Assembly (NCBI GenBank): GCA_963709605.1
Contig: CAVPWX010000020.1
Span: forward strand, 401,337-465,336
Source of the DNA: an uncultured Chloroflexia bacterium
GTDB lineage: Bacteria; Chloroflexota; Limnocylindria; Limnocylindrales; CSP1-4
Length of the DNA: 64,000 nt
Reading direction: 5' to 3'
Within the stretch, counting starts at the first letter, position 1, and each line of letters starts with the position of its first letter. Positions 42,055 to 61,488 of this stretch are shown piece by piece. The position numbers and the translations under genes were made by a program. The notes under the pieces were generated by a model that made no database searches, had not been told where the DNA came from, and was given only the letters and a program-made list of their open reading frames with translations.

Positions 42055-42130
42055 GAGGACGTATTTCGGAATGTCCGCCGCCGCAGGCGCGTCGAGCCGC
42101 GCCCGGCGGCAGCCCAGGAGGAAGCACCTC

Positions 42131-43164
42131 GTGACCATCGCATCCCCGAAGCGCATCGGCGCCCTTGCGCTCATGGCGGCCTTCGCCGTCGCGGCCTGCG
42201 GCGGCGGCGCCACGCCCGCCCCGGCCCGGCGCCGGGCTCCGGGCCACGCACCGAGCACGGCAGCGGCCTCCGGCTCGATCGTCGTCTCCGGCAGCTCCAC
42301 CGTCGAGCCGATCTCGACCGGCGTCGCCGAGCTGTTCAGGAGGCGAACCCCGAGTGCAACTACCAGATCGAGGGTCCTGGCACCGGCGACGGCTTCGCCC
42401 GCTTCTGCAACGGCGAGACCGACATCTCCGACGCCTCGCGCGCCATCAAGGACGAAGAGGCGGAGAATGCGAGGCGGCCGGCATCGAGTACGTCGAGCTG
42501 AAGATCGCCTACGACGGCATGTCGGTCATGACGAACCCGACAACGACGGCGATCGCCTGCCTCAGCTTCGCCGACATCTACGCCCTCGTCGGCCCCGAGT
42601 CGACCGGCTTCACGAAGTGGTCGGACGGCGCGGCGATCGCCAAGGAGCTGGGCTCGACACAGCCCTCCCCGACGCCGACCTCGTGATCGCGGGCCCCGGC
42701 GAGGAGTCCGGCACGTACGACTGATTCGTGGAGCTCGTGATCGCCAAGACCGCCGAGTCGCGCGGCCAGGAGGCCCAGACCCGGCCGCGACTACACCAGC
42801 TCGGCCAACGACAACATCATCATCGAGGGCATCAGCGGCAACCCGACCTCGCTCGGATGGGTCGGCCTCGCGTTCGCCGAGGAGAACGCCGGACACGGTC
42901 CGCGAGATCCCGATCAGCAAGGACGCCAACGGGACCTGCGTCGAGCCCAACGCCGAGACGGTCTCCGACGGCAGTTACCCGATCTCCCGGCCCCTCTTCA
43001 TCTACGTGAACAAGGCGAAGGCCGAGGCGAACCCGGCCGTCGCCGCCTACGTCGACTTCTACCTCGCCGAGGGAACGATCGCCAAGGTCCTCGAGACCGT
43101 CCCCTACGTGAACCTTCCCGCCGAGGAGCTCGCCGCGACGCGGGCCGCCTGGGACGCGCGCTAG
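42131..43164 (+). CDS. pstS: Phosphate ABC transporter substrate-binding lipoprotein (multiple apparent frameshifts)
   Basis: Signal peptide with lipobox (LMAAFAVAACGG). PstS segments are in three frames (ORFs 42071, 42165, 42728) plus the C-terminus PISRPLFIYVNKAKAE. Confidence 0.8.
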
Positions 43165-43260
43165 CCGCTCTCCTCTTGCGCGACGCCGGCCGGGTCGGCT
43201 CGGAGACCCGGCCGGCGTCGCGCACGCCGCTAGACTCCGCACTCGGGAGGGTTCTCGTCG

Positions 43261-44208
43261 ATGGCCACCGCAACTGCGCCGGGCGCTCCGGGCGCGCCGA
43301 GCGCGCTGGTCGGCAGCCGCGCCCGCCGCGCCCGCGAGGCCTGGATCGGCCGCGCTCTTCTTCGCCGCCGCCCTCGTCTCGGTCATCATCACCGCCTTCA
43401 TCATCCTCACGGTCTTCGAGCAGGCGGTCGAGTTCCTCCTCAAGATCGACCTCTCGCAGCTGGTCGCGCCGGGCTGGTTCCCGCGCCGCGGCATGTTCGA
43501 CATCGCGACGCTCTTCGTCGGCACGCTGCATCGTGACCGCGATCGCGATGCTCATCGCCGGCGCCGATCGGCATCCTCTCGGCGATCTACCTCTCGGAGT
43601 ACGCGAGCCCGCGGGTCCGGGGCACGGTCAAGCCGATCCTCGAGATCCTCGCCGGCATCCCCAGCGTCGTCCTCGGCTTCTTCGCCCTCACGTTCATCAA
43701 CCCGACGATCGTCCAGACGCTCGTCCCGGGCGCGAAGGGCTTCAACCTCGCGGCGGCCGCGATCGCGGTGGGCATCCTGACGATCCCCCTCGTGGCGACG
43801 ATCTCCGAGGACTCGATGAAGGCGGTCCCCCAGTCGCTGCGCGAGGCCTCCTACGGCCTCGGCGCGCGCCGGGTGACGACCGCGACCCGCGTCGTCCTCC
43901 CGGCCGCCGTCTCCGGCATCGTGGCCGCGCTCATCCTGGGCGTCTCGCCGGGCCGTCGGCGAGACGATGGTCGTGGCGATCGCGGCCGGCGCCTCGGGCG
44001 GCTCGCTCTTCTCCGTCGAACCCCTTCGAGCCCGGCCAGACGATGACGGCGGCGATGGCCGCGCTGGCCACCGGCTCGGACCAGGTCGCCGGCGACAACG
44101 CCGCGTTCCAGAGCCTCTTCTTCGTGGGGCTCCTGCTCTTCGTCATCACGCTCGCTCCTGAACGTGATCGGCGACGCCTTCGTGCGGCGCGTCCGCCAGG
44201 CGTACTGA
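43261..44208 (+). CDS. pstC: Phosphate ABC transporter permease (apparent frameshifts)
   Basis: PstC-like TM segments are spread over ORFs 43261, 43493, 43768 and 43967. Confidence 0.7.
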
Positions 44209-44217
44209 GGCCCGCGA

Positions 44218-45156
44218 ATGGCCACCTCCCCGAACCCCTCCGTCACCACGATCGCCGTCCAGCGCGCCCTCGCCGGCCACGGGCCGGACTGGCGCGGGCT
44301 GATCTTCGCCCTGCTGCTGCTCGGCTCCATCATCGCCACCCTGGCGATCCTGATCTTCCTGCTCATCGACCAGCTCTCCCGCGGCCTGCCGGTCTACCAG
44401 GAGCGCGGCCTCGACTTCCTCACGTCCGGCCTCTCGTCGAACCCCGCCAACGCCGGCATCGGCCAGGGGATCCTGGGCTCCATCCTCATCGGGATCCTCG
44501 TGAGCCTGTTCTGCTTCCCGCTCGGAATCCTCACCGCCGTCTACATCGAGGAGTACGCCCCCGACAACCGGCTGACGCGATTCATCAACATCAACATCCG
44601 GAACCTCGCCGGCGTCCCCTCCATCGTCTACGGCCTCCTGGGCCTGACCGTCTTCGTGGCCTTCTTCGCGTTCCTCGGGTTCCCCAACAACGGGCGCAAC
44701 ATCATCGCCGGGGCGATGACCCTCACCGCGCTCATCCTTCCCATCGTCATCATCACCTCGGCCGAAGCGCTGCGGGCCGTGCCGCGAACGCTGCGCGAGG
44801 GCGGCTACGGCGTCGGCGCGTCGCGCTGGCAGGTGACCAGCCGGCTCGTCCTCCCGGCCGCGCGCTCCGGCATCCTGACCGGCACGATCCTCGCCCTCGC
44901 CCGCGCCCTCGGCGAGACCGCCCCGCTCCTGCTCGCCGGGGCGATCCTCGGCACCTTCTCGAGCCAGGGCGGGCTGGAGAGCCTCCTCACGGGCCCGTAC
45001 ACGGTCCTCCCGATGACCGTCTACGACTGGGCCCGCAAGCCCCAGGAGGAGTTCCGCGCGCTGACCTCGGCGGCCATCATCGCCCTCCTCGTCATCACCC
45101 TCTTCTTCAACACCCTGGCCATCCTTCTCCGCAACCGGTACCAGAAGCAGTGGTAG
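44218..45156 (+). CDS. pstA: Phosphate ABC transporter permease
   Basis: Intact 312-aa ORF with a PstA-like pattern. Confidence 0.85.
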   Translation: MATSPNPSVTTIAVQRALAGHGPDWRGLIFALLLLGSIIATLAILIFLLIDQLSRGLPVYQERGLDFLTSGLSSNPANAGIGQGILGSILIGILVSLFCFPLGILTAVYIEEYAPDNRLTRFININIRNLAGVPSIVYGLLGLTVFVAFFAFLGFPNNGRNIIAGAMTLTALILPIVIITSAEALRAVPRTLREGGYGVGASRWQVTSRLVLPAARSGILTGTILALARALGETAPLLLAGAILGTFSSQGGLESLLTGPYTVLPMTVYDWARKPQEEFRALTSAAIIALLVITLFFNTLAILLRNRYQKQW

Positions 45157-45185
45157 AGAACGACCGTCCACCCGAGGGGGATCCC

Positions 45186-46054
45186 GTGACCACCGACACC
45201 CAGCCGGCCCCCAGCCGGGACGTCCGGATCGGCGCCGACGCGATCGCGGCCGGCGCGAACTCGGCGCTCGACGAGGAGATGGCGTCCCTCCCCACGGCCG
45301 TCTCCCTGCGCAACGTCCACCTCCACTACGGCTCGTTCCGGGCCGTGAAGGACGTGACGATCGACATTCCCGAAGAACCGGATCACCGCCCTCATCGGGC
45401 CGTCCGGCTGCGGCAAGTCGACGCTCCTCCGCTCGATCAACCGGATGAACGACCTCATCCCGAGCGCCCGCGTCGAGGGCGAGATCCTCTTCCACGGCGA
45501 GAACCTCTACGCCGACTACGTCGACCCGGTCGAGGTCCGGCGGAGGATCGGGATGGTCTTCCAGAAGGCGAACCCGTTCCCCAAGTCGATCTACGACAAC
45601 ATCGCCTTCGGCCCCCGGATCACCGGCTGGAAGGGCGACATGGACCAGCTCGTCGAGGCGTGCCTGCGGCGGGCGGCGCTCTGGAACGAGGTGCAGGGAC
45701 AAGCTCGGCGATTCGGGCCTCGCCCTCTCGGGCGGCCAGCAGCAGCGCCTCTGCATCGCCCGGGCGATCGCGACCGAGCCGGACATGATCCTCATGGACG
45801 AGCCCTGCTCCGCCCTGGACCCGCGCTCCACGCTCCAGATCGAGGAGCTCATGGCGGAGCTCAAGGAGAAGTACACGATCGTCATCGTGACCCACAACAT
45901 GCAGCAGGCGGCACGGGCATCCGACTTCACCGTCTTTCTCAACATGGACGATGATCGGGCCGGCTACATCGTGGAGCAGGGTCCGACGGCCCAGATCTTC
46001 ACCAACCCGAAGAACCAGATGACCGAGGATTACGTTTCCGGGCGCTTCGGCTGA
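45186..46054 (+). CDS. pstB: Phosphate import ATP-binding protein (at least three apparent frameshifts)
   Basis: Walker A (GPSGCGKST), [14 protein letters not shown] and [13 protein letters not shown] lie in different frames. A single extra g in cccGaagaaccgg causes the first shift. Confidence 0.85.
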
Positions 46055-46071: not shown

Positions 46072-46827
46072 GTGACCGAGCGAGATCCCCAGCAGGAGCC
46101 GGTGCTCGACCGCCAGGTCGAGGAGATCCTGCGCGGGGTCGAGGGCGACATCCCCGAACCCGTGGTTGCGCTGCCCCGCAGGCCCCTCGACCGCGAGGAG
46201 CGGACGATCAAGGATGTTCTCCTCCGGATGGGCAGCATCATCGAGGAGCGGATCCGCCTCACTGTGGAGGCGCTCGAGACGCACGACGACGCGAAGGCGC
46301 TCGCCGTCATCGAGGGCGACGAGGAGATCAACGCCCTCCAGGTCCAGGCGATGGATCACGTGGTCCTGGCGATCGCCACCCAGCAGCCGGTGGCCCGCGA
46401 CCTGCGCTTCCTCCTCGCGCTCGACCGGATCGGCGCCGAGCTGGAGCGGATCGGCGACTCGGTCGCGAACGTCGCCAAGCGGGCCCGCGAGCTCGCCCCG
46501 GTGCCGCCCCTGGAGGGCCACCTGGCGATCCCCGAGATGGGGCGCATCGCCGCCCAGTTCCTCGCCGACACCATGCGGGCGCTGGTCGACAGCGATGCCG
46601 CGGCGGCCCGCGAGGTGGCGACCCACGACGACGACATCGACGCCCTCTACCACCGCTGCGTCGACCGCCTGGTCGAGCTCGCCAAGGCCGACCCCGACAA
46701 CGTCGAGCGGGCGATGAAGCTCCTCATCGCCGCCCGCTACATGGAGCGGGTCGGCGACCACATCACGAACATCGCGGAGGACGTCGTCTTCGTCTCCTCG
46801 GGCCAGCGCGAGGACCTCAACCCGTGA
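46072..46827 (+). CDS. phoU: Phosphate signalling complex protein PhoU
   Basis: Two PhoU repeats. RBS GGGAGGAGAG before the GTG at 46072. Confidence 0.85.
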   Translation: MTERDPQQEPVLDRQVEEILRGVEGDIPEPVVALPRRPLDREERTIKDVLLRMGSIIEERIRLTVEALETHDDAKALAVIEGDEEINALQVQAMDHVVLAIATQQPVARDLRFLLALDRIGAELERIGDSVANVAKRARELAPVPPLEGHLAIPEMGRIAAQFLADTMRALVDSDAAAAREVATHDDDIDALYHRCVDRLVELAKADPDNVERAMKLLIAARYMERVGDHITNIAEDVVFVSSGQREDLNP

Positions 46828-47258
46828 CGGGGGCCGCGCGGGTGCTGGTCGTCTGCACCGGCAACGCCGCGCGGAGCCAGATGGCCGAGGCGTTCCTCTC
46901 CCGCGAGGGGGTCGCCGCGGCATCGGCCGGGACGCACCCGGCCGGCGTCCACCCGCTCACCGTCGCCGTCCTCGCCGAGGTCGGCATCGACTGGTCCGGG
47001 GCCCATTCCAAGGGGATCGGCGAGATGCTCGACGGGCCCTGGGACCTCGTCCTGACCGTCTGCGACGATGCCCGCGAGGCGTGCCCCGTCGTGCCCGGGG
47101 CACGGCGGACCGCCCACGAGGGGTTCCCGGACCCGGCCGCGGCGACGGGCACCGAGGAGGATCGGCTCGCCGCGTTCCGGGCCGCCCGCGACGCGATCGC
47201 CGCCCGGATGACGACCCTCGCGGCGGACCTCCGCGCCGAACGGGAACCCGCCGGATGA
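46824..47258 (+). CDS. arsC: Arsenate reductase, thioredoxin-coupled LMW-PTP family (or LMW protein-tyrosine phosphatase)
   Basis: CTGNAARSQMAE P-loop, and a Cys-X7-Cys pair (TVCDDAREACP) as in ArsC Cys82/Cys89. It lacks the DPYY motif. The GTG overlaps the phoU stop (GTGA). Confidence 0.65.
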   Translation: MTGAARVLVVCTGNAARSQMAEAFLSREGVAAASAGTHPAGVHPLTVAVLAEVGIDWSGAHSKGIGEMLDGPWDLVLTVCDDAREACPVVPGARRTAHEGFPDPAAATGTEEDRLAAFRAARDAIAARMTTLAADLRAEREPAG

Positions 47259-47778: not shown

Positions 47779-48147
47779 TCAGCAGCCGGCCGGCGCCGCG
47801 AGGTTCCCGTAATCGGTGCCCAGGGCGGCACTCACCTCCAGGGCGACCGCGGGCAGGTAGGTCTTCACCTCGTTGGTGGCCCGCAGGTGGGCCATGATCA
47901 CGTCGTTGGCCCGCACCGCCGCCTGGCACAGGCGGAGCCGGTCGACCTGCTCCTGGCTCGGGGCAAGGCCCGACTGCTGGACGCGCGCCACGCTGCCCTG
48001 CTGCTCGCGGAGATCGGCCATCAAGCCTTGCGCCGCTGGGTCGTTCTCGAAGGCCTCGGCGGCGGCGCGGGAGGCGGCGACGGCGGGTGCCTGCAGGAGG
48101 GCCCGGCCGAACGCGACGGCCGCATCCTGGAGCTCTGTGCTGAGCAT
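47779..48147 (-). CDS. YlbF/YmcA-like (UPF0342) helical protein ending in Cys
   Basis: 122 aa, helical, C-terminus ...LAAPAGC. RBS GGGGAG. Confidence 0.4.
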   Translation of the reverse strand: MLSTELQDAAVAFGRALLQAPAVAASRAAAEAFENDPAAQGLMADLREQQGSVARVQQSGLAPSQEQVDRLRLCQAAVRANDVIMAHLRATNEVKTYLPAVALEVSAALGTDYGNLAAPAGC

Positions 48148-48159
48148 CGTGTTCTCCCC

Positions 48160-48585
48160 TCAGCCGCAGCAGCCGCCGGCGGAGCGGCAGTTGGCGGCGA
48201 AGTCGATCCCGATCTGGGCGCTGACGACCGCGGCCGTCTCGCGACACACGCTCTGGAACGCGGCCGTGGCCGCGACGTACGCCGTGACGGACGGGACCGC
48301 GTACGTGGCCTGCTGGAGGCGCTCCAGCTCAACGCGCTGGGCATCGGGGAGGACCCCCATCATCAGCTCCACGCGGAGCTCGGCCTGGCGCAACTGGAAT
48401 GCCTCGATCGCCGATGTCGCGGCGGGATCCTTCGAGAGCGCCCGGTCGGCCGCCATGAGGGCGGTGAACTCGGGGCTGGCGCGGAGGGTCGCACCGAAGG
48501 CGCCGGCCGCCGAGAGCGCCTCGGCCTCCGCCGCCCGGGTGGCGGCCGCGCGATCGGCCGGGTCGAGTGTCGTTGGGTGGAGCAT
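48160..48585 (-). CDS. YlbF/YmcA-like (UPF0342) helical protein with a Cys-rich tail
   Basis: 141 aa, C-terminus ...ANCRSAGGCCG. RBS GGAGG. A paralog of the gene downstream. Confidence 0.4.
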   Translation of the reverse strand: MLHPTTLDPADRAAATRAAEAEALSAAGAFGATLRASPEFTALMAADRALSKDPAATSAIEAFQLRQAELRVELMMGVLPDAQRVELERLQQATYAVPSVTAYVAATAAFQSVCRETAAVVSAQIGIDFAANCRSAGGCCG

Positions 48586-48601
48586 CGGGTCAGGCCTCCG
48601 T

Positions 48602-50471
48602 TCAGGCGACGAGCGCGGTGGGGGCGAGGGTTCGCTCGAGGAGCTCGGTCAGCCGGTCGAGGCCCATGACCTCGCCGTCGAGCAGGGGCACCTCGAGGAC
48701 CGGGACCGAGAAGCGCTGCTCGATGTCGGCGAGGTATGACTGCTGCATGTTCCAGCGCGCCCGCGAGTACGGCGTCTGCAGGGCATCGTCGGGCAGGACC
48801 ATGTTGGCGACGACGAGTCCCAACGGGATCCCGAGCGATTCCAGCTCGGCGATGGCGCGCGTTGCCTCGACGATCGGCGTTGCCTCCGGGTACATCACGA
48901 AGGCGAACGTGCTCTCGGCCGGGTCGCGCATCATCTCGATGACCCGGCTGAACTGGGCCTTCGCGACGTCGTCGGCGGCGGCCGTGTCGACCGAGGCGAA
49001 GACCTTGATGTCGATCTGGCGGCTCCAGTCGATGGGGAGCTCGAGCAGCCGCAGGGTGTGGCCCGTCGGCGCCGTGTCGAAGACGGTGACGTCGAACGCG
49101 TCGCGGCTGGCCAGCTCGATGAACTGGTCGAACGCCGCCATCTCCTCGGTGCACGGCGAGTCGAGCTCCTCGCGCATCGCGGCGATCGAGGCCGGGCTCC
49201 GGCCGCGCGCGACCGCGTCGGCAATGATCCGATCGGTGTAGGCGATGGCCGCGGCCTTGGCGTCGACGCGGGCCGCCCAGAGGCCGTCCACGCCGTCCAC
49301 CGGCGCGGGCTCCGTCCCGACCGTCGCGCCGAGGACCTGCCCGATGTGGGCCGCGGGATCGGTCGTCACCAGGAGGGTGCGATGACCCTGGCGCGCCGAC
49401 CAGAGGGCGGTGGCGCAGGACGCGACCGTCTTGCCGACGCCGCCCTTGCCGGCAAAGAAGATCGTCCGAGGGCTCCCGTTCGGCAGGAGCGCCGCCGCCA
49501 CGGCCGCCTCGTCGTCGCGCGTCGCCCGCGTCGACCCGCGGTCCGCATGGCCGAAGGCCGGCCTCGTGGCGTGCTCGTCGGCGAGGAGCGGGACCAGGGC
49601 CCGCAGCCGCGCGATCCCGCGGACCTCGCCGTCGAGGAGCGGGACGCGCCGGGTCGGCATCGGCAGCTGGCGCGCGATCTCGGCGAGGTAGCGCTCCTGC
49701 ATCGCGATGCGGGCAGCGAAGAACGGGGTCGAGGCCTCCTCGGCGGGCAGGATCCCGTTGACGATGAGCTCCGTCGTGACGATCCCGAGGCGGGCCAGCT
49801 CGGCGCCGGCGCGCCGCGTCTCGGCGATCGCGGTCGCCTCTGGATGGAGCACGAACGCGAACCGTGTCAGCGACTGGTCGCGCAGCGCGGCAAGTGCCCG
49901 CTCGTACTTGACCTTCGCCTCGGCGATGGCCGCCGCGGGGCCGATGCACGTCTGGCCGGCGCCCGCGTCGGCCTGCGAGATGCTCTTCGACCACGCCTCG
50001 GGCAGCTCGAGCAGGCGCACCGTGTGGCCGGTCGGCGCCGTGTCGAAGATCACCAGGTCGAAGCCGGGCGCCGGTGGGCGGCGCTGCGGGGGCCGGCGCC
50101 GTCGGGTCGAGGAAGTCGGCGAACCGATCGAAGGCTGCGACCTCCGCGGTGCAGGGCCCGGCGAGCTGCTCCTCCATGACCCGCACGATCTCCGGCGGGA
50201 AGATCTCGCGGATCGGGGCGAGCGTCCGGTCGGTGTACTCGGCAGTCGCACGGTCGGGGTCGATCTCCATCGCCGACAGGCTCGGCACGCCCACGATCCG
50301 GGTGATCGCGTGGCCGATGGGCTGCTCGAACACGTCCGCGAGGTTGGATGCCGGGTCCGTCGTCACGATCAGGACGCGCGTGCCGGCATCGGCCTCCGCG
50401 ACCGCGGTCGTGCAGGCCATCGTCGTCTTGCCGACGCCGCCCTTGCCGGAGAAGAAGAGGAACTGGGTCAC
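48602..50471 (-). CDS. arsA: Arsenite-stimulated ATPase ArsA (apparent frameshift near 50100)
   Basis: Two halves, each with a P-loop (GKGGVGKTT, GKGGVGKTV) and the DTAPTGHT signature. Cys are present at the expected metalloid-site positions (GPCTAEVAAFDRF, GQTCIGP, SPCTEEMAAFDQF). Confidence 0.8.
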
Positions 50472-50498
50472 CGCGGATCCTTTCGGGAGCGCTGCGGC

Positions 50499-50834
50499 TC
50501 AGGCGTTGCTGGTGAGCTCGGCGCGGAGCTCGTCGAGGGTTGGGTAGGCGTCGGTCTTCACGATGCGTCCGCCCATCACGGTGATCGGCAGGACCTCGAG
50601 CTGGCGCTCCTTGATCAGCTGGTAGACCTCGCGGTTGCGCATGAAGGCCTGGGGGTCCGCGGTCATCATGTGGCGGACCACCGTCCTGCCCTCGGCCTCG
50701 AGCGTGAAGACCGCCTCGCTCAGGTCGACGAGCGTCGTATCGAGCACGGGACCGCAAAGCCCCGTCGGGCAGCAGAGCGGCGGGTCGAAGATCTCGACGT
50801 CGGGGGTCGCGGGGCCGGACAGCTGATCACTCAT
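50499..50834 (-). CDS. arsD: Arsenical resistance operon metallochaperone/repressor ArsD
   Basis: MSDQLSG...IFDPPLCCPTGLCGP N-terminal vicinal Cys motif and a thioredoxin-like fold. 111 aa. Confidence 0.75.
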   Translation of the reverse strand: MSDQLSGPATPDVEIFDPPLCCPTGLCGPVLDTTLVDLSEAVFTLEAEGRTVVRHMMTADPQAFMRNREVYQLIKERQLEVLPITVMGGRIVKTDAYPTLDELRAELTSNA

Positions 50835-51102
50835 GGGACGCTTGCTCCTGTGGGTGGCGGAGTGGAGCCGGGGCGGCCGGCTGGGTGAGCACGAGAGGAT
50901 CGACCGGTGAACGTGCCGCGGCCCGGGCGGCGTCAGCCGCGCTCCTGCCGCGGACCAGGTCACGGATGCGGTTGAACGCCAGCTCGAGGAGGGGCGTCTC
51001 GAAGAAGGGCCCGCAGGCACCTCCCGGGCAGCACGTCGGCTCAGCGAGTAGGTCGGTATCGGTCGCTCGGGGGTTGTCGGTCGCGTCATGCATGTAGAGC
51101 AT
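50827..51102 (-). CDS. ArsD-like N-terminal paralog (truncated or degraded)
   Basis: Contains TCCPGGACGP and LELAFNRIRDL, but the C-terminal half does not resemble ArsD. It overlaps the arsD start. Confidence 0.45.
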   Translation of the reverse strand: MLYMHDATDNPRATDTDLLAEPTCCPGGACGPFFETPLLELAFNRIRDLVRGRSAADAARAAARSPVDPLVLTQPAAPAPLRHPQEQASHE

Positions 51103-51403
51103 CCGACTGCAGAGCCTCGGCGACGGCGCGCTCGATGGCGGAGACGTTGAGCTTCCCGCCGCTGAAGCGGCGGATCCCGTCGATCATCACGACCGGCGGA
51201 ACGGCCTCGCCGGCCGCGATCGCCGCCTCGACGTCCGGGTGTCGGGCCATCTCGGGACCGAAGAGCTCGGCGTACTCGAAGGCGACGGCCGGCCCGAACC
51301 GCTCGGCGAGGCGCCGCTCGACGAACGCCGCGGCCGCCCGCCACGTCTTCCCGGGGTCGCAGGCTGCCATGGGCACCCCTACCACGACGACCGTGCTGGT
51401 CAT
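51086..51403 (-). CDS. Small thioredoxin-fold-like protein (possibly YuzD/DUF1462-like), hypothetical
   Basis: MTSTVVVVGVPMAACDPGKTW...; weak pattern similarity to DUF1462 disulfide oxidoreductases. The ATG overlaps the arsR stop. Confidence 0.35.
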   Translation of the reverse strand: MTSTVVVVGVPMAACDPGKTWRAAAAFVERRLAERFGPAVAFEYAELFGPEMARHPDVEAAIAAGEAVPPVVMIDGIRRFSGGKLNVSAIERAVAEALQSDALHA

Positions 51404-51825
51404 CGCGAGACCTCCGCGGCCAGTGGCAGGCGCGACAGTGGCGACGGCTCGAGACCCGTCGTACTGCGGGAGCCGCAGTCGGTGCACAGGCAGGCCGTGG
51501 CCGCGTCGGTGGTGGGAGTGAGGAGATCGACGACCGCGGCCCGCAGCGCCTCGACCCGCTCGACGTCGAGGGAGTAGAAGACCCAGCGGCCGCTCCGCCG
51601 CTCGCGGAGCAGGCCAACGCCCCGCAGCGTCCGAAGGTGGTGCGAGACGAGTGCCGTGCTCATGCCGAGCGCGTCGCCGACGTCGCAGACGCAGTGCTCT
51701 CCGTGGGCGAGGAGGGCCACGATGCGGGCACGGTTCGGCTCCGCGACCGCCTGCAGGACGGCGAGCTGATCGTGCGCCAGAGGGAGTGCGATCCCGTGCG
51801 CGGGGTGGGCTTTCATGGCTCCCAT
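51400..51825 (-). CDS. arsR: ArsR/SmtB family As(III)-responsive repressor
   Basis: HTH plus the GEHCVCDV metal site, like ELCVCDL in R773 ArsR. A C-terminal extension carries CLCTDC. Confidence 0.75.
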   Translation of the reverse strand: MGAMKAHPAHGIALPLAHDQLAVLQAVAEPNRARIVALLAHGEHCVCDVGDALGMSTALVSHHLRTLRGVGLLRERRSGRWVFYSLDVERVEALRAAVVDLLTPTTDAATACLCTDCGSRSTTGLEPSPLSRLPLAAEVSR

Positions 51826-51850
51826 TCTAACAACTGTTAGACCAACGTGT
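51826..51850. promoter_or_regulatory. ArsR-type operator candidate, ATTCTAAC-aact-GTTAGACCAAC (TCTAAC-N4-GTTAGA palindrome), abutting the arsR start
   Basis: Read directly. AT-rich. Near-identical to the site at 52907-52930. Confidence 0.5.
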
Positions 51851-51861: not shown

Positions 51862-52083
51862 TCATCCGCAGCATCCGGGCCCGCGATCCGGACCGCAGGC
51901 GAGCGAGGATGGGCGCCTGGCCTGGTGGACGATCGTCGCGAACGTCAGCCGCTGCCGGGCTTCCCGGCTCCCACATGCGGGGCATGTCGGTACCAGTCCG
52001 CCTTCGCGCTCGGCGATCGAGGCGCGAACCTCGAAGGCCTCGCCACAGCGTCGGCATTCGTAGTCGTACAGGGGCACGGTCAC
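51862..52083 (-). CDS. FmdB-family zinc-ribbon protein with an extra C-terminal Cys tail
   Basis: PLYDYECRRCGEAFEV...CPACGS, then ...ACGPDRGPGCCG. Confidence 0.5.
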   Translation of the reverse strand: MTVPLYDYECRRCGEAFEVRASIAEREGGLVPTCPACGSREARQRLTFATIVHQARRPSSLACGPDRGPGCCG

Positions 52084-52153
52084 ACTCCTCCCCGCCGCCG
52101 GACGCATGGCGCGTCATCCTCGCGGCGGATTCCGCTCCGCCCGTCGCGTGCTC

Positions 52154-52992: not shown

Positions 52993-53262
52993 TCACCGTC
53001 GCCAGGCCGCGCCCGATCGCACGGCACGCAGCGTGCTCGCCGACACGACCGTCCAGGCGACGGCCTCGAAGCGGACGTTGACCATCATCGGGTAGATGAT
53101 CATGAAGACCGCGGCCGTCGTGACGCCGCCGAGGAGCCCGGCCTGGCTCGTCGCGAACCCGGCAAGCGCGTTCCCGGCCAGCAGGCCGACCACGATGGCC
53201 AGGCTCACGTAGGCCAGCATCCAGCGGTTGAGATGCTCCTGGAGGGAGCGGATCCGGGTCAT
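52993..53262 (-). pseudogene. N-terminal fragment (about 85 aa) of an ACR3-family arsenite efflux permease, terminated by a stop. The remaining roughly 270 codons are absent.
   Basis: MTRIRSLQEHLNRWMLAYVSLAIVVGLL...MIIYPMMVNVRFEAV resembles the ACR3 N-terminus (...MYPPLAKVRYEEL). No continuation in any frame; the PIG-L gene follows. Confidence 0.55.
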
Positions 53263-53650
53263 CGCGCTGCGGCCGGCGTCGCCGTCACCGTGGCCCCGCT
53301 GATCCGTTCGCGGAACACATCGTGCCCGGGCTGGCTGGGGCGGGTCGGACATGGTGCGCCTTCTTCGTTGTCGTCCGTGTGGGGGATGGGCCGGCTCGTG
53401 CTCGGTCCATTTATCTCACCGTGAACTGTGTTATTATGCCCCAAGAGATCCCTCTGCCGTCGGTCACCTCGTTGGGTGCTGATCGGCCTACCGGAACAGG
53501 ACATGCGGGACGGACCCGGCGAGCACACCGCTGAGCTGAGCGGCTCGCCGGCACCGTCGATCGCTGGAGCGGCCGGGATCTCGTTCCAACGCCCAGGCCC
53601 AGCCTCCCTACCCGAGCCTCGCCGCCTCAGCGTTTCAGACAGGTGGCACG

Positions 53651-54689
53651 TCAGCCCGTCGATGCAGCCCGGTGCCCGGCGTGCCGCTCCGCCACGATCT
53701 CGGCCAGGATGCCGAGCGCGATGTCGGCCGGCGTGTGGCCCCCCAGGTCGAGCCCGACCGGGGCGTGGATCCGGGCCAGCTGGGCGTCGTCGAGCCCCGC
53801 CTCGCGCAGGCGCGCCAGCCGCTGGCCATGGGTCCGCCGGCTCCCGAGCGCGCCGACGTAGAAGGCGCCCCGCCGCAGGGCGGTGATGATCGCCGGGTCG
53901 TCGATCTTCGGGTCATGGGCCACGGCCACGACGTGGGCGGCCGCGTCGATGCCGGCCCGGTCGGCGAGCTCGTCGGCCCAGCCGAGCAGCAGCTGGTCGG
54001 CGTCGGGGAACCGCTCACGGGTCAGGAACGCGGCCCGGGGGTCCACCACGACCGTCTGCAGACCGATCGCGTGGGCCAGGCGGACCAGGTAGACGGCGAT
54101 CTCGCCGGCCCCCGCGATGATGAGGCGGGCGGCGGCGAGCATCTCGAGGAAGACGTCGCGCCCGCCGGCCCGGACGATGCGGGAGGCGCCGGCACGGAGG
54201 GCGTCCCGGGCAAGGTCCGCGAGCTCGGCGTCGGCCGCCACGTCGCCAAGAGAGCCGGAGCGGATCCCCGCCGGCGTCGAGGACGACACGCTCCACGTCG
54301 GCGGCCTGCCGACCAGCCGGGAGCGGGGTGGCGATCAGCAGCGCCCGGCCCTCCCCTGCCGCGTCGAGGACCACGTCGGGCAGGACCGGCTCGACGAGGA
54401 CGTCGATCTCGCCGCCGCAGGTGAGGCCCACCTCGGCGGCCCGCTCGTCGGTGACCCCGTAGCGCACCAGCTCGCGATAGCCGCCGCGCCGGGCAGCCTG
54501 GACGGCCTCCGCCGCGGCGCCCTCGACGCAGCCCGCGGAGACGCTCCCGGCAAGCCGGCCGTCGTCGGCGGCAAGGAGGGTGCTGCCGATCTCGAAGGGG
54601 GCCGACCCGACGGACCGGACGAGCGTCGCCCGGCCGAACCCCACCCCCTCGGCTCGCCAGCGAGCGCCGGTCGCCAGGACGTCCCTCAC
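53651..54689 (-). CDS. XdhC/CoxI-family accessory protein (apparent frameshift near 54270)
   Basis: XdhC N-terminal domain (ORF 54015..54689) and Rossmann-like C-terminal domain (ORF 53651..54289, LIIAGAGEIAVYLVRLA). Confidence 0.7.
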
Positions 54690-54726: not shown

Positions 54727-55078
54727 TCATCGCGCGTTCTCCTCGGCGTCGAGCACCTCTAGCGCCCACCCGTAGGCGGCCACGCTGGCCGGGAATCCGG
54801 CGGTGGGGATCGCCAGCACGATCGCGTGGAGCAGCTCCTCCCGCGTCAGCCCCTCGGCGAGCCCGCGCCGCACGTGCGAGCGCACGGCGCCCTCCGACGC
54901 CAGGCCGATGGCGATGCCGAGCTTCACCAGGCGCTGCTCGCGGGCGCCCAGCGGCCCGGCCTCGCGAACGCGAGCGGCGAGGCCCTCGTACGCCTCGACC
55001 ACGTCGGGCAGGTCGCGCCGGACCTGCTGGTAGATGCGGGGCGTGTACCCCGGTTCCTTCGACCCGTCGTCCACCATC
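54727..55078 (-). CDS. Carboxymuconolactone decarboxylase (AhpD-like) family protein
   Basis: AhpD-like core pattern (EQRLVKLGIAIGLASEGAVRSHV). ATG at 55078 with a GGGAG RBS. Confidence 0.7.
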
Positions 55079-55179
55079 GTGTCTCCCTGGGATCCGGCCC
55101 CTCGCCGCCACGGCAGCGCCATGCGCGTCGACCACGATGGTACCGCGCACGCCGACCCGGCCGGTCGGGGCCGCGCAGT

Positions 55180-56710
55180 TCACGTGAGCGACGGAAACAG
55201 CGTCCGGTCGGTGTGCGGCAGGAAGAGCGCCGCCGTGTACTCGTCGAAGTAGCGCGGCTCGACGGTCAGCTCGAGGCAGGTGATCGACGAGGCGATCTCT
55301 CGCGCGCGCCGCCACGCCGCGCGCGAGAGAAGCGCTGCATGCGCGCCCGCCAACGAGCTGTTGCCGATGAACTGGATCCGCTCGCGCGGGATGTCGGGCA
55401 GGAGCCCGATCCGTACTGCCTGCTCGATCTCCAGCGATTGGCCGAAGTTGCCGGCGATGAAGACTCGCTCCACGTCAGCAAACGCCAGGCCCGCGTTCGC
55501 AAGCAAGATTTCGCGAACCCGCGTAGAGGGCGGCCTTGTCGCGAATGAGGTTCGCAATGTCGCCCTGCCGCAGCGCGATGTCGCGCCCGACGGCTGTCTC
55601 GTTCGCCGAAGCCAGAACGACCTCGGCGTATCCTTCGCGGCGACGCACGCTGGGCGCGGCGAGGTCGACCTTGCCGGCGCGGTCGATAGCGCCGACCTGG
55701 AGGAACGCGCCGAGCGCCTCGATGAGCCCAGAACCACAGATCCCCCGAGGCGGCTGGCCGCCAACGGTGGCATAGGCGAGACGACCATCGTCGGCCCAGA
55801 CGCGGTCGATCGCGCCGGGTAGCGCTGCCATCCCCCACTCGAGACCGCACCCCTCGAACGCGGAGCCAGCAGAACCTGAGCATGCCATCAGGAATTCGCG
55901 GTTGCCCAGTACCGTCTCGCCATTGGTGCCGATGTCGATCAGGATGGAAAGCGGTTCCTCGTCCGCGATCCGTGTCGAGAGCAGGCCGCCGGTTACGTCG
56001 CCGCCCACGTAGCCGCTCGCCGCCGGGAGGAGATAGAGCGGCGCGCCTTCGCCGACGTTCAATCCCACTTGGGCGACGTCGAGAACCGGAAACGCGGTGG
56101 CCGCCGGCACGTATGGCTCCCGGCGGATACTGCCGGGGTCGAGGCCAAGGAGCAGGTGCATCATGACGGTGTTGCCCGCCATGGCCACCGCCGCGATGTC
56201 GTCCTGGCCGACCCGCGCCTCGGCGCCCAGCGCCGCCACGAGCTCGTTCAGTGAGTCGAGAGCCGCCTGGCGCAGCGCTTCGAGCCCACCCGGTTCCTCG
56301 GCGTGCATCATCCGCGACGTGACGTCCATGCCGAAGATGCGCTGCCCGTTGTAGACGAGGTGAGATCCGAGGACCGCGCCCGATTCGATGTCGACCAGCT
56401 CTGCGACGACCATCGACGTGCCGAGGTCAACCGCGAGTCCCAGCGTGCGCGACGCTTCGCCGAGCGGTACGACGCGGACGACGCGCCACGTGTCGCCCAC
56501 ATCAGCCAGCGTCGCGTCGACCTGCCAGTCCCCGCGCCGCAGCGCTGGACCCAGGTCGCGCAGCACGGCCAGGGTCGGTTCAAGCGAACGGTCATCGAGC
56601 CGCGGCCGCAGCGTGCGCGCAACTCGTGCCCAGTCGCTCGTCGTATCGCTGAGCGAGGGTGGGTCGACCGTGAGAGACACCCGTTGCAGCAGAGCATCGT
56701 CCGCGCGCAT
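55180..56710 (-). CDS. ASKHA-fold DUF4445 protein (RACo-like putative corrinoid reductive activase without an N-terminal ferredoxin domain; apparent frameshift)
   Basis: LAVDLGTSMVVAEL, IDIGTNGETVLG and GICGSGLIEALG motifs match the RACo C-terminal ATPase. The C-terminus is in ORF 55180..55788. Confidence 0.55.
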
Positions 56711-56937
56711 CTGCATCTCCTTGGATCTCCGCGACACCCGCTCCGTCGTCATCGGGAGCCTGCAGTTGGCGTTCGCCATGGCGTCGTCGACCGCGCCGAC
56801 GCCCAATGCTGTCCGAGGCTTCTTGCCGGGCGCGCGGGACTGCGGCATCCTGAACCGTGGCGGGCGCTTCGCCGTTCGTGATCCTAACCCGTCATGGTGC
56901 GGCCGACCTGCGAGGACGACCAGAGGGGAGAGCGCAC

Positions 56938-57186: not shown

Positions 57187-57921
57187 GTGGCTGAGATCAG
57201 GAAGGTCGATCCGGCGCCGGACTACCCGCCCGAGGAGGGCTGCTACCTCCGGGGCAACGACTACTCGCCCGTGGCGGTGCTAGTCATCCTGAAATGGATC
57301 CGGGAGGAGACTCCGCCCGAGATCGAGGCGCTCGTCCGGGTGGGCGTCGAGAGCGGGGCGGCCCTCTCGGGCACCCTCCAGACCGAGAACGTCGGGCTGG
57401 AGAAGGTCATCTGCAACGTGGTGGCCAACCCGAACATCCGCTACCTCGTCGTCTGCGGCCCCGAGTCGCCGGGGCACCACGTCGGCGAGACGATCCTCGC
57501 CCTGATGGCGAACGGCGTCGACCAGCGGAAGCGGATCGTGGGCACCAGCGCCCAGACGCCCTACCTGTTCAACATCCCGGTCGCGTCGATCGAGCGGTTC
57601 CGTCGCCAGGTCACGGTGATCGACCTGATCCACGAAGGGCGGCCGGAGGTGATCCGCGAGGCCGTCGCGGCCTGCTACCAGGAAGAGCCGACGCCCTTCC
57701 GCGATCGCCTCCTGCACGATCCCGGCGCCTGGCCGGATCCGCCCATCAGCGGCCGGATCACCTGGCGCGTCACCGACCCGACGAGGGAACCCAAGAGCGA
57801 GGAGGAGCGGGCCGGGCAGGAACGGATCCGGGCGCTGATCGACCGCGCCAGGAAGGCCGCCGAAGCGAGGCACGGCGGCCCCCCGGACCCGTCGGGGGGC
57901 GAAGCCGGCTCGCCGGGCTAG
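57187..57921 (+). CDS. MtrA-like protein (homolog of tetrahydromethanopterin S-methyltransferase subunit A, cobamide-binding fold), soluble
   Basis: TENVGLEKVICNVVANPNIRYLVVCGPESPGHHVGET is closely similar to the MtrA core (TENLGIEK...NPNIRFLVVCG.E..GH). Confidence 0.55.
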   Translation: MAEIRKVDPAPDYPPEEGCYLRGNDYSPVAVLVILKWIREETPPEIEALVRVGVESGAALSGTLQTENVGLEKVICNVVANPNIRYLVVCGPESPGHHVGETILALMANGVDQRKRIVGTSAQTPYLFNIPVASIERFRRQVTVIDLIHEGRPEVIREAVAACYQEEPTPFRDRLLHDPGAWPDPPISGRITWRVTDPTREPKSEEERAGQERIRALIDRARKAAEARHGGPPDPSGGEAGSPG

Positions 57922-58001: not shown

Positions 58002-58256
58002 CTACTCGTCCAACCAGACGGCGATGTTGCCGGCCGAGGGGATCCGTCCCGCGCTCACCACCTTGCCGTCGATCACGAGGCCCGGGGTCGACAGCACGCC
58101 ATAGGCGGCGATCTGGGCGTGGTCGGTCACCTTGACGATCTCGGCTTCGACGCCGGCCATCATGACCGCCTCGCGGGCGTTCGCCTCGAGCTGCTTGCAG
58201 TTGTCGCAGCCGGGACCAAGAACCTCGATTCTCGTCAAGTGAAGGCCTCCATCCAT
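58002..58256 (-). CDS. Small thioredoxin-fold redox-active disulfide protein (TIGR00412-like)
   Basis: 84 aa with a GPGCDNCK CxxC motif. Confidence 0.7.
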   Translation of the reverse strand: MDGGLHLTRIEVLGPGCDNCKQLEANAREAVMMAGVEAEIVKVTDHAQIAAYGVLSTPGLVIDGKVVSAGRIPSAGNIAVWLDE

Positions 58257-58318
58257 GGCGCGCCGGGCGCGCCGTTCTCAGCGGTGGGACATGGCCGCCG
58301 GGCGGGCGGCGCGCATGG

Positions 58319-58648
58319 TCACGCGAGGATCTCCCCGAGCGCCTCGAGCGCCCGCCGGCAGGCGGCGGCGTCGCGCTCGTAGTAGACCCGCCGGGTATCG
58401 GCGCCGACGCGGCTGGCGCGCACCAGCCCGGCGTCGCGGAGGCGGGCGAGGTGGTTGCTCACGTTGTTCTGCTGGGCGCCGAGGGCGGCGGCCATCTCGC
58501 AGACGCAGACGGGCCCGTCGCGGAGCATCCGCACGATGCTGGCCCGGTTCGGGTCGGCAAGGAGCGCGGCGGCCGCCGTGGCATCGCTCACGTCGGGCGC
58601 CGGGAGGTTCATTCGCAGGTCCTGGAGGACCGGCAGCTCAATCGGCAT
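58319..58648 (-). CDS. arsR: ArsR/SmtB family metalloid-responsive repressor
   Basis: HTH with the GPVCVCEM metal-binding site. Confidence 0.8.
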   Translation of the reverse strand: MPIELPVLQDLRMNLPAPDVSDATAAAALLADPNRASIVRMLRDGPVCVCEMAAALGAQQNNVSNHLARLRDAGLVRASRVGADTRRVYYERDAAACRRALEALGEILA

Positions 58649-58693
58649 CGGAGGTCTCCTCTGGCGTGCCGTTCATGGACGTGGCGATCGTTG

Positions 58694-59449
58694 TCATGTC
58701 AGGAGGATCCAGGCGCGCTGGATCGCGAGCGCCACGAGGGCGACGGCGAAGATCCGGGACAGGGTCTGGCTCTTCACCCAGCCGGCCGTGAAGCGAGCGC
58801 CGAGCCAGGCCCCGATGACCGCGGCGATCGAGGTGACGATCACCGTCGGCCAGTCGAAGGTCGCGGTCGGGAGGTGGGTGGCGAAAGCCGAGAAGGACGG
58901 CAGCGTCACCGCGACGGAGTTCGTGGCAGCGGCCAGGCGGGCGGAATAGCCGACCAGGGTGAGCGTCGGCATGAGCAGGAACCCGGGGCCCACGCCGAGA
59001 AACCCGGCGAAGACGGAGATCGGCACGGCCGCGCCGGCGGCCTTCGCCCTGTTGCGGTCGGTGATCTCGGCGACCACCTCGGTCGAGGCGCCCTTCGGCA
59101 GCGCCATCCGGACGGCGAGGAAGAGCAGCACACCGACGTAGAGCCACCAGACGATGTCGACGGTGGCGAACTGGAGGAGCCAGACGCCGAGCGGCGCCCC
59201 GATCGTGGTGATCGTCACCAGGATGAGCGCACCGCGCTTGTCGACCATGCCCTTGCGCCAGAAGGCGATCGCGGCGCTGATCGCGGTCAACCCGTTGAGC
59301 AGCAGCGCCCAGGGCTGGATCTCGTTGATGAGGTCGTAGCCGAACAGCCCCAGGACGGGGATGGCGATGAAGGCGACGCCGAGGCCGAGCATCCCCGACA
59401 GGAACGACAGGCCGAACAGCAGCGGCGTCAGGAGCAGCAGCATCTCCAC
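58694..59449 (-). CDS. TauE/SafE (DUF81) family anion exporter
   Basis: 251 aa, 7-8 TM segments, GMLGLGVAFIAIP and GFLGVGPGFLLMP motifs. Confidence 0.8.
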   Translation of the reverse strand: MEMLLLLTPLLFGLSFLSGMLGLGVAFIAIPVLGLFGYDLINEIQPWALLLNGLTAISAAIAFWRKGMVDKRGALILVTITTIGAPLGVWLLQFATVDIVWWLYVGVLLFLAVRMALPKGASTEVVAEITDRNRAKAAGAAVPISVFAGFLGVGPGFLLMPTLTLVGYSARLAAATNSVAVTLPSFSAFATHLPTATFDWPTVIVTSIAAVIGAWLGARFTAGWVKSQTLSRIFAVALVALAIQRAWILLT

Positions 59450-59453
59450 GGGA

Positions 59454-59906
59454 TCAGGCCACGATCTCGAACGTCGGCTCGACGACGATCTCGGACTTCA
59501 CGGAGTTGGCGACGAGGCTGAATCTCTGCGCCGACTTCAACGCCCGGCGGGCGCGGGCCTCGACGACGGCCGGCTGCTCCGCCCCGGCGCGGATGACGAT
59601 CCGCGGCCACAGCCGCAGGTAGGTGAAGGTCTCGGTCCGGTCGAGCTCGATGAGCTTGGTTCCCTCGGCCCTGCAGTCGTACGACTGCAGGTCGAGCCGG
59701 AACCGCTCGGTCGCCCAGATGAACATCATCATCACGCAGGTGTTCGCCGCGGCGACGAAGGCATCCTCGGGCGTCAGCACCCCGGGATGTCCCTGGGCAT
59801 CGGGTGGAGCCGAGAAGGGCATCTCCGGGCCGTTGCCCAAGGTGATCTGCCCCCAGTGCTCCCCCGTCCACGTCACCGTCGTGTGGTACGTCGCCCTGCG
59901 GCTCAC
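59454..59906 (-). CDS. OsmC/Ohr-family peroxiredoxin-like protein
   Basis: OsmC fold pattern with two Cys (...AANTCVMMMF... and ...DCRAEG...). The GTG overlaps the upstream stop (GTGA). Confidence 0.7.
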   Translation of the reverse strand: MSRRATYHTTVTWTGEHWGQITLGNGPEMPFSAPPDAQGHPGVLTPEDAFVAAANTCVMMMFIWATERFRLDLQSYDCRAEGTKLIELDRTETFTYLRLWPRIVIRAGAEQPAVVEARARRALKSAQRFSLVANSVKSEIVVEPTFEIVA

Positions 59907-60615: not shown

Positions 60616-61013
60616 GGTCGGATGCCTCCTCGCGGGAGACCAGGTCGTCGACGACGGTGGCGATCTCCTCGGCCACCGCATGGGCGAGCTGCTGTCCGCC
60701 CTCGTTCAGCTCGGCGATGCCCCGCGGCTTCAGCTCCCGGTTCCGCCGGTACACGTCGAGCACCGCGATGCCCTGGGCGACGTGCCCTCCGCTCTCCTCC
60801 ACCATCTTGGCGGCGCAGGCGAGCTTGCAGCCGTCGATCGTCACCGCCGGATGCGCCCTGACCGCGGCGCGGGCGTCCTCGTCACCCAGGACCAGGAGCG
60901 AGAGGGCCACGAGCCCCGTGGCCCCCGGCCGCAGAGTCCTCGGTGACCTCGTAGGCGGCCTCGCGGCTGACCGTGCCGTACGTCTTGCCGATGCCGCTGC
61001 AGGGCACGACCAT
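60608..61013 (-). CDS. DGC-domain protein (paralog; apparent frameshift near 60935)
   Basis: MVVPCSGIGKTYGTVSREAAYEV..., then ...AVTIDGCKLACAAKMVEESGG. Confidence 0.5.
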
Positions 61014-61033
61014 GACCTTGCGATCTTCGGGGC

Positions 61034-61483: not shown

Positions 61484-61488
61484 GGGTT

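Follow-up and report, generated by a model that had tools for sequence, protein, structure and literature searches.

A bacterial arsDA operon with a conserved set of small cysteine-tailed proteins, including a YlbF-like pair, from an uncultured Chloroflexia bacterium

ArsA is the textbook pump ATPase, and what it works with when its operon encodes no pump is the question raised by a 64-kb stretch of DNA from an uncultured Chloroflexia bacterium (contig CAVPWX010000020.1, positions 401,337 to 465,336; hereafter the window, ~74 % G+C), in which arsD and arsA are followed by two genes for small proteins of the YlbF family. The locus is a bona fide ArsR-controlled arsDA operon, inducible by arsenite, As(III), with a conserved set of small soluble Cys-tailed accessory proteins. 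Two of these are YlbF-like (YlbF-a and YlbF-b), the third is an FmdB zinc ribbon whose tail reads C-x(n)-CC, and the fourth, g2, is a thioredoxin-fold protein with a single Cys. A similar question is posed by Halobacterium NRC-1, where, according to two reviews, ArsA-dependent arsenite resistance is independent of ArsB and the partner has been missing since 2004 (PMC3600143, PMC1447603). The elements of the window locus are listed here in the direction of transcription.

52077..51862, minus strand: FmdB-type zinc ribbon, 71 aa, GTG start (a longer open reading frame (ORF) starts at 52107); C-terminal tail ...ACGPDRGPGCCG (ends GPGCCG)
51826..51841: palindrome TCTAACAgtTGTTAGA, probable ArsR operator, overlapping a TAGAAT box 9 nt before the arsR start
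51816..51400, minus strand: arsR, 138 aa; HTH_5, E 2.5e-13; CVC motif in HGEHCVCDVGD
51403..51086, minus strand: g2, thioredoxin-fold protein, 105 aa; its ATG overlaps the arsR stop (ATGA)
51093..50827, minus strand: g3, 88 aa; ArsD-like CCPGGACGP, then a variable Pro/Ala-rich tail
50834..50499, minus strand: arsD, 111 aa; PF06953, E 4.2e-27; CCPTGLCGP
50471..48602, minus strand: arsA, ~623 aa once repaired; PF02374 on both pieces
48585..48160, minus strand: ylbF1 (YlbF-a), 141 aa; PF06133, 46.1 bits; tail IGIDFAANCRSAGGCCG (...NCRSAGGCCG)
48147..47779, minus strand: ylbF2 (YlbF-b), 122 aa; PF06133, 51.7 bits; ends ...LGTDYGNLAAPAGC (...APAGC)

The initial annotation of this DNA had described a seven-gene minus-strand operon behind a palindromic operator, and all seven genes, from arsR to ylbF2, are found in place, at the coordinates given. 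An eighth gene, that of the FmdB zinc ribbon just upstream of arsR and its operator, belongs to the same conserved module. The eight ORFs between 52077 and 47779 are closely packed, with the third-position GC bias typical of real genes, and the operon genes overlap or are separated by 12–27 nt. The 16-bp palindrome occurs once in the window, with 0.01 occurrences expected by chance. The exact palindrome TAACANNTGTTA was not found in the relatives; 12 of them retain a looser CTAAC-N4-6-GTTAG repeat at this place, immediately ahead of arsR. ArsR itself carries an HTH_5 domain and the As(III)-binding CVC motif (HCVCDV) of an ArsR/SmtB repressor, and relatives in the same position are 67–83 % identical. 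A scan of 47.5–52.4 kb for sigma-70 promoters and intrinsic terminators, which is uninformative for this phylum, found none.

The metalloid ligands of ArsD and ArsA are retained. The CCPTGLCGP motif of ArsD corresponds to Cys12/13/18, and ArsA is a two-domain ATPase with two P-loops and two DTAPTGHT motifs. When the ArsA orthologue of locus L025 was aligned to E. coli ArsA (1F48), Cys113/172/422 were all conserved, and the window sequence has these motifs too, with the caveat of a 1-nt frameshift. As sequenced, arsA switches frame near 50068–50070, and two added nucleotides restore one ORF of 623 codons. The sister locus L111 (96.6 % identical) reads GCG-CCGG where the window has GCGCCCGG, i.e., one extra C in a C-run, and the two differ by 13 gaps over 2950 nt. 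Other relatives carry an intact 621-aa arsA. The relatives stem from long-read projects on metagenome-assembled genomes (MAGs), and similar breaks are seen in them. An intact ArsA at least 99 % identical was sought in the protein database and none was found, the best full-length match being 93 % identical. The frameshift is almost certainly a sequencing error, an extra C in a homopolymer; in the detailed comparison this is likely because at least 14 frame changes were counted in ~20 kb of the window relative to L025 orthologues (pstS, pstC, pstB, xdhC and both DGC genes). Since the extra C is absent from L111, the window holds many frame changes and the relatives show similar breaks, arsA is provisionally treated here as intact in vivo. 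Programmed frameshifting was considered and rejected, because the sister genome has no such shift and its site is a homopolymer.

The two proteins encoded after arsA both exceed the gathering cutoff of Com_YlbF (PF06133, 23.9 bits), so that their first assignment to the YlbF/YmcA family is confirmed by Pfam, and the fold of a natural fusion relative adds to this. Several of the Cys-tailed cluster representatives are YlbF-a/YlbF-b fusions of 260–270 aa, and one of them (P0249) gave an AlphaFold (AF2) model with a predicted local distance difference test (pLDDT) score of 88.8 and a predicted template-modelling (pTM) score of 0.79. Its helical domains match RicA/RicF (target-normalised template-modelling (TM) scores of 0.68–0.77 for 6PRK, with 0.77 for 6PRK_A; also 6PRK_B, 2PIH and 2IAZ; probability 1.0), and the RicA/RicF-like helical fold is thus seen on the fusion relative rather than on the window proteins themselves. 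The tails of the model are of low confidence, which suggests that they are flexible. A YlbF1 profile compared with the PDB sequences matched 2IAZ only, and weakly.

The cysteines of these tails are strictly kept. In YlbF1, C114, C139 and C140 are invariant among the relatives, and the terminal Cys of YlbF2 is invariant in the window and in all 18 related loci examined; the C-terminal Cys clusters reported at the outset for both proteins, i.e., the CC pair and the terminal Cys, therefore hold in all relatives. A profile search of 1.84 billion cluster representatives returned 321 clusters (50 % identity) at E ≤ 1e-3, and most of the best 150 of these 321 representatives end in a tail of the form IG(L/I)(D/N)F(A)..C-x3-6-CC(G). 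The exact YlbF1 protein, together with hundreds of relatives that are 68–84 % identical, was found in metagenomes. The C-x(n)-CC tail of YlbF-a is also present on its FmdB partner.

The linkage of the pair to arsA is equally consistent. In species-representative genomes, the order arsD-arsA-ylbF1-ylbF2 is present in 18 of 18 loci, wherever flanks are available; most of these are Chloroflexota ('Ca. Limnocylindrales', uncultured Chloroflexia), three are Propionibacteriaceae (a MAG, Brooklawnia and Nigerium) and one record is labelled Acidobacteriota. A further 74 loci came from metagenomes. The arsA 3' end lies directly upstream of ylbF1 in 50 of the 54 that have more than 300 nt upstream (by tblastn; in L082 too, by hidden Markov model), and of the 63 whose sequence runs far enough past ylbF1, 62 have ylbF2 as the very next gene downstream. 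The arsA-ylbF1-ylbF2 association is far beyond chance. It extends from the halo-like ArsA to the canonical TIGR04291 ArsA of Propionibacteriaceae (806 bits), and five distant YlbF members that were checked (45–67 % GC) are all located in ars-type loci. The gene contents of loci L105 to L110 are as follows.

L105: arsR, ACR3-like (247 bits, cutoff 283), Usp, arsD, arsA, arsC, YlbF-a, HFCD flavoprotein, DsrE, FmdB (...GPGCC), methyltransferase, g2 homologue, Zip, YlbF-b
L106: arsA, YlbF fusion, FmdB, g2
L107: g2, YlbF-a, YlbF-b, flavoprotein
L108: arsR, arsD, YlbF-a, YlbF-b, g2; no arsA
L109/L110: arsA, YlbF-a, YlbF-b, FmdB

YlbF-a, YlbF-b, the FmdB-CC protein and g2 thus recur together as accessories of ars loci, and the window encodes all four. 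The FmdB protein scores 45.3 bits on Zn_ribbon_8 (PF09723, cutoff 34.4) and 48.7 bits on TIGR02605 (cutoff 31.3) and has the two CxxC motifs of an FmdB zinc ribbon; homologues with GCC(G) tails adjoin the arsA-YlbF genes in L005, L016, L067, L105, L106 and L109. The g2 protein matched no Pfam or NCBIfam model, and a profile search against the PDB sequences returned noise only. Its AF2 model (pLDDT 87.1) nevertheless shows the beta-alpha-beta-alpha-beta-beta-alpha topology of a thioredoxin-like protein, the nearest solved structures in Foldseek being S. aureus SA0789 (1XG8, TM 0.67) and ArsD (3MWH, TM 0.60–0.65), with many thioredoxins also matched at E around 1e-3. The small thioredoxin-like protein said to be coupled to arsR was therefore rightly named at the level of the fold. 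It has a single conserved Cys (C15) and lacks a redox-active CxxC. The g2 family comprises 238 database matches, the 120 listed all being at least 68 % identical; g2 is conserved in the relatives, and distant homologues are found in L105–L108.

The third gene of the operon, g3, stands outside this set. It resembles ArsD solely in the N-terminal CC-x4-C motif region and a short helix, and no Pfam match was found at E < 0.1, so that the full ArsD thioredoxin-fold domain (PF06953) is lacking. This agrees with the earlier view of g3 as a truncated ArsD paralog with CCPGGACGP. Its N-terminal half is conserved in L004–L010, L017, L018 and L027, the gene has shrunk to a stub in L011, L016, L021 and L022, and in the relatives ArsD matches the g3 region by tblastn with 43–45 % identity over 29–39 aa. 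Judged from these sequences, g3 is a truncated ArsD duplicate that is dispensable and has been deleted in some relatives.

The closest described counterpart of the operon is archaeal. The best NCBIfam match of YlbF1 is HcsL (NF041416, E 2e-14), one of a pair that NCBI names halo-CC-star proteins, with 53.9 bits against a cutoff of 140; YlbF2 scores 23.9 bits, and the HcsS model (NF041415, cutoff 55) gives 17.2 bits. YlbF1 is the homologue of HcsL and YlbF2 the counterpart of HcsS. Neither protein reaches the curated cutoff of these families, and both have the position and the ending of HcsL and HcsS, directly downstream of arsA and with Cys at or next to the C-terminus. The intact Chloroflexota ArsA likewise scores best on ArsA_halo (NF041417), at 610 bits with a cutoff of 800, and a tblastn search of 72,556 plasmids with YlbF1 matched Halobacterium plasmids only, at hcsL. 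On pNRC100 of Halobacterium salinarum NRC-1, the gene order is arsC<-arsR<- then ->arsD-arsA-hcsL-hcsS-arsR2-arsM. As in the window, arsD and arsA are followed by a YlbF-like protein ending in CC and by a second Cys-terminated protein, no permease is encoded in either operon, and the tails are homologous (HcsL ...VVSERIGQEFAQSLGGGCC and YlbF1 ...VVSAQIGIDFAANCRSAGGCCG; HcsS ...TGVDYTDASDAGSDCC and YlbF2 ...LGTDYGNLAAPAGC). The window locus differs in being bacterial, in the full 122-aa domain of YlbF2 compared with the 62 aa of HcsS, and in tails that end in CCG and C where the haloarchaeal ones end in CC; moreover, g2, g3 and FmdB genes are absent from pNRC100.

This counterpart bears on function, as deletion of arsADRC made Halobacterium NRC-1 sensitive to arsenite, whereas knockout of the chromosomal arsB did not sensitise it, and a novel transporter was proposed from those results; this is taken from two reviews that cite Wang et al. 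2004 (PMC3600143, PMC1447603). The literature searched contained no paper describing YlbF together with arsA, nor one on halo-CC-star proteins; papers on YlbF and arsenic were irrelevant, and HcsL and HcsS occurred as unrelated acronyms only. The claim that the association is undescribed stands as far as papers are concerned, but not for databases, as NCBIfam already holds the HcsL and HcsS models beside haloarchaeal ArsA. The window operon is therefore the bacterial version of an arrangement, arsDA with a Cys-tailed pair, of which the only record so far has been NCBI family models for haloarchaea.

Two other known systems frame the operon. It shares with the canonical arsRDABC operon of E. 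coli R773 the CVC motif of ArsR, Cys12/13/18 of ArsD and the two-domain ArsA with Cys113/172/422. It differs in having no arsB or acr3, in a separate arsC at 46824..47258 on the plus strand, and in five extra small Cys-bearing genes. The YlbF pair shares its Pfam family and fold with RicA (YmcA) and RicF (YlbF) of B. subtilis, where the two proteins heterodimerise; C134 and C146 of RicF and C141 of RicA ligate a [4Fe–4S] cluster with C167 of RicT, and RicAF alone holds no cluster (PMC6751060). As a paralogous pair, the window proteins are expected to heterodimerise as well, and here too several Cys lie in the tail of one partner, against a single terminal Cys in the other. The C-terminal Cys tails are a trait inherited from RicF/RicA and did not arise specifically for arsenic. 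The differences lie in the tail pattern, C-x(n)-CC in the window and CX3CX5CXC in RicF, and in the context, which is arsenic resistance instead of RNase Y and developmental control. None of the genes called in the loci examined encodes RicT/PSP1, although no search aimed at it was made in the window.

Does the pair, then, take the place of a pump? No intact ArsB, ArsP or ACR3 was found in the 64 kb by tblastn with E. coli ArsB, ACR3-like, ArsP-type and TDT proteins, and a hydropathy survey combined with Pfam showed that the membrane ORFs of the window are limited to Amt, EamA, ABC-2, Pst, TauE and MerT-like proteins. The permease reported as missing from the transcription unit is hence missing, in intact form, from the whole window, and no ArsB or ACR3 is encoded with arsA. 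A relic lies just outside the unit. The ORF at 52993..53352 on the minus strand (119 aa) joins, in frame, the N-terminal 69 aa of an ACR3-like (SBF) permease and the C-terminal 22 aa of a TDT/SLAC1-type transporter, these parts being 68 % and 77 % identical, respectively, to their counterparts in L023. In L023 and L011, full-length ACR3-like and TDT genes are separate and bracket ~4.4 kb just upstream of arsR, and the ~4.4 kb of L023, with its ACR3-like, TDT, CDF, FmdE and TauE genes, is missing from the window. The full-length ACR3-like protein scores 112 bits on TIGR00832, under the cutoff of 283. Because this relic of both genes is retained, the absence of a permease from the window is secondary. 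A search for an intact arsB or acr3 beside the unit thus yields a deletion relic and nothing intact. The alternative that 52993..53352 is a frameshifted full-length ACR3 was rejected, as only ~500 nt are available and the fusion to the last 22 aa of the TDT-type transporter is in frame.

In other genomes, the pair shares its operon with an ACR3-like gene (L105) or has one close by (L011, L013), ArsP-type permeases accompany it in L004, L019, L020, L021, L059–L063 and L088–L096, and it nearly always lies within a few kb of TauE. Conversely, arsD-arsA of the Aggregatilineales locus L112 stands without a YlbF pair and without a permease in the vicinity. Since ACR3-like or ArsP permeases can accompany the pair, and since arsA is absent from some of its loci (L108, L037), the pair is an accessory and does not simply replace the pump. 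In this respect the initial annotation, which had put the pair in the place of ArsB/ACR3, is not upheld.

What the pair does as an accessory goes beyond gene content, homology and synteny; that it heterodimerises, that its tails bind As(III), which way the metalloid is passed and which protein exports it are all inferred. The reading favoured, tentatively and with somewhat less than even confidence, is that the pair is an As(III)-binding thiol relay or buffer, an accessory of ArsD and ArsA, with export through a separately encoded permease. YlbF-a and YlbF-b would form a helical heterodimer of the RicA/RicF type, as expected because of the RicA/RicF precedent (PMC6751060), the natural fusions and the AF2 model of one fusion. 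The flexible tails would present at least three thiols, C...CC from YlbF-a and the terminal C from YlbF-b, which might bind As(III) in three-sulfur fashion, like the CC-x4-C site of ArsD. In this way the pair would serve as an additional buffer or chaperone for As(III), with exchange to and from ArsD and ArsA, and extrusion would need a membrane protein from outside the operon, for which the TauE of a neighbouring ArsR cluster and an unlinked gene are candidates. As(III) is favoured as the ligand because the vicinal CC after another Cys mirrors the ArsD site, the FmdB protein shares the tail, and no RicT was seen among the called genes of the loci examined (without a specific search of the window).

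Several points weigh against this relay or buffer role. The equivalent tail cysteines of RicAFT ligate a [4Fe–4S] cluster rather than a metalloid (PMC6751060). YlbF1 stays below the HcsL cutoff (53.9 and 140 bits), arsA is frameshifted as sequenced, and the window offers no identified exporter. In L037 (1–2141) and L038, moreover, the pair directly follows TauE-ArsR-Thioredoxin_3, with no arsD or arsA, and the partner of the YlbF proteins therefore need not be ArsA. The pair might instead belong to a RicAF-like Fe–S or redox module in which the YlbF tails, perhaps with FmdB in the role of RicT, ligate a [4Fe–4S] cluster, and the complex senses or repairs arsenite or redox damage, or regulates ars mRNA or protein activity, without carrying As(III). 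The homology to RicA/RicF in sequence and fold, the C-terminal tail residues C134/C146 of RicF and C141 of RicA that ligate cluster 2 with RicT (PMC6751060), the recurrence of FmdB as a third Cys-rich partner and the redox-related neighbours (OsmC, GcvH, Lpd-like, thioredoxins, a CCG/GlpC-like insert) all point this way. However, no RicT/PSP1 appears among the called genes of the loci examined (again without a specific window search), the linkage is specifically to arsD and arsA, and the invariant vicinal CC is typical of As(III) sites, vicinal cysteines not being known to co-ligate one Fe–S cluster (PMC6751060). Such a module is distinctly unlikely. Post-translational modification has also been considered, with the Cys-terminated tails as substrates, e.g., of oxidative decarboxylation by an HFCD flavoprotein, and not as direct ligands. 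A CoaC/HFCD-family flavoprotein with weak similarity to CypD, a Cys decarboxylase of ribosomally synthesised and post-translationally modified peptides, does directly follow the YlbF genes in L105 (6390–7058) and L107 (954–1544), and the curator description of the FmdB family likens its tails to heterocycle bacteriocin precursors. Yet the flavoprotein scores best as CoaC (188 bits, coaBC) and no such enzyme is present in the window or in most relatives, and we regard modification as extremely improbable.

The model first proposed for the locus, in which the Cys-tailed proteins replace the membrane partner and no ArsB/ACR3 is needed, is unlikely. The ATPase activity of ArsA would here drive As(III) onto the YlbF proteins and the tails of FmdB, for protein-based cytosolic sequestration or hand-off to a non-canonical exporter such as TauE or ArsP. 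This would fit the lack of an intact ArsB, ACR3 or ArsP in the 64 kb and, in most Chloroflexota relatives, of any of them within 10 kb, the permease-free arsD-arsA-hcsL-hcsS of pNRC100, and the sensitisation of Halobacterium to arsenite by arsADRC deletion but not by chromosomal arsB knockout, as cited in the two reviews (PMC3600143, PMC1447603). It is difficult to reconcile with pairs that stand alongside ACR3-like genes (L105, L011, L013) or ArsP, with pairs that lack arsA (L108, L037), with arsDA that has neither a local permease nor the pair (L112) and with the deletion relic in the window; stoichiometric sequestration would also be a weak mechanism of resistance. A related, bolder idea, which we consider doubtful, sees in the Cys-tailed quartet (YlbF-a, YlbF-b, FmdB-CC and g2; HcsL/HcsS in archaea) the missing partner system through which ArsD and ArsA confer arsenite resistance without ArsB/ACR3. 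ArsA might load As(III) onto, or strip it from, the flexible C-terminal thiol tails, with a tail entering ArsA much as a tail-anchor enters its relative Get3, and the carrier might then sequester As(III) or pass the metalloid to a non-canonical exporter. If true, the idea would account for the resistance of Halobacterium NRC-1, which depends on arsADRC but not on ArsB. The last alternative is that the operon is decaying in its host genome, the arsA frameshift and the permease deletion both being real and the module non-functional here. The arsA gene in two frames and the truncated permease fusion at 52993..53352 could be read in this way, but the extra C of the C-run is not present in the 96.6 %-identical L111, the at least 14 frame changes also hit housekeeping pst and other nearby genes, 13 gaps separate the two sister assemblies over 2950 nt, and both arsA pieces keep a high third-position GC and 89–96 % protein identity to orthologues. 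Decay is given very little credence.

On the favoured relay or buffer role, as on the others, the arrangement itself is what spans lineages: arsD-arsA followed by a homologous Cys-terminated YlbF-like pair is present in Halobacterium, Chloroflexota, Propionibacteriaceae and further lineages of 45–67 % GC, often with two more small Cys proteins. The module may help to explain how ArsA works without the usual membrane pump and thus bears on ArsB-independent ArsA function, and hcsL/hcsS of NRC-1 provide a concrete candidate that is open to genetics. It also extends the RicA/RicF fold to metalloid biology. The YlbF-like proteins are currently mislabelled 'competence/sporulation regulator YlbF', so that a corrected annotation would be useful even if they are merely extra chaperones.

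Some observations concern the operon genes themselves. A database protein of 784 aa (P0458) joins a full ArsA (77 % identical) to a Com_YlbF domain and is either a true fusion or the result of a stop-codon read-through error. In L023 (6563–7969), as well as in L011, L013 and L061, a GlpC/HdrB-like CCG-domain iron–sulfur protein and a thioredoxin fragment are encoded between arsD and arsA. The frame changes of the window are located at 42100–46050, 53651–54689, 55180–56848 and 59900–61020, a RACo-like gene also being affected; their density points to an error-prone, probably long-read, assembly, and ORF-based annotation of the window will fragment many genes.

A second ArsR-type cluster lies at 58005–62913 on the minus strand and encodes an Lpd-like oxidoreductase, a GcvH-like protein, two DGC proteins, OsmC, TauE, ArsR (with a CVC motif) and Thioredoxin_3. 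The cluster accompanies the arsDA-YlbF module in L108 and in the majority of Chloroflexota relatives, and its TauE-ArsR-(ArsP)-Trx3 part is also found in Propionibacteriaceae. One guess is that it is a lipoyl-dependent peroxidase or dithiol system. The DNA between the two ars-type clusters holds four genes, for an MtrA-like corrinoid methyltransferase subunit (57187–57918, plus strand), a RACo-like corrinoid activator (55180–56848, minus strand), a CMD/AhpD-like protein (54727–55122, minus strand) and XdhC (53651–54689, minus strand). MtrA adjoins ylbF2 in L025 as well, and a link of the MtrA/RACo-like genes to methyl transfer onto metalloids is conceivable. Two arsC genes of the low-molecular-weight protein tyrosine phosphatase type are present on the plus strand. 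The one at 46824–47258 lies between phoU and a SixA-like phosphatase gene, convergent with ylbF2, and the order phoU-arsC-sixA is conserved in the relatives; the other, at 63149–64000, is apparently fused to, or preceded by, a MerR-type helix-turn-helix at the end of the window. Finally, a small protein with four transmembrane segments and a GCPVC motif is encoded at 7965–8444 on the plus strand, where it adjoins a response-regulator gene and matches MerT weakly (E 7e-4, below the cutoff).

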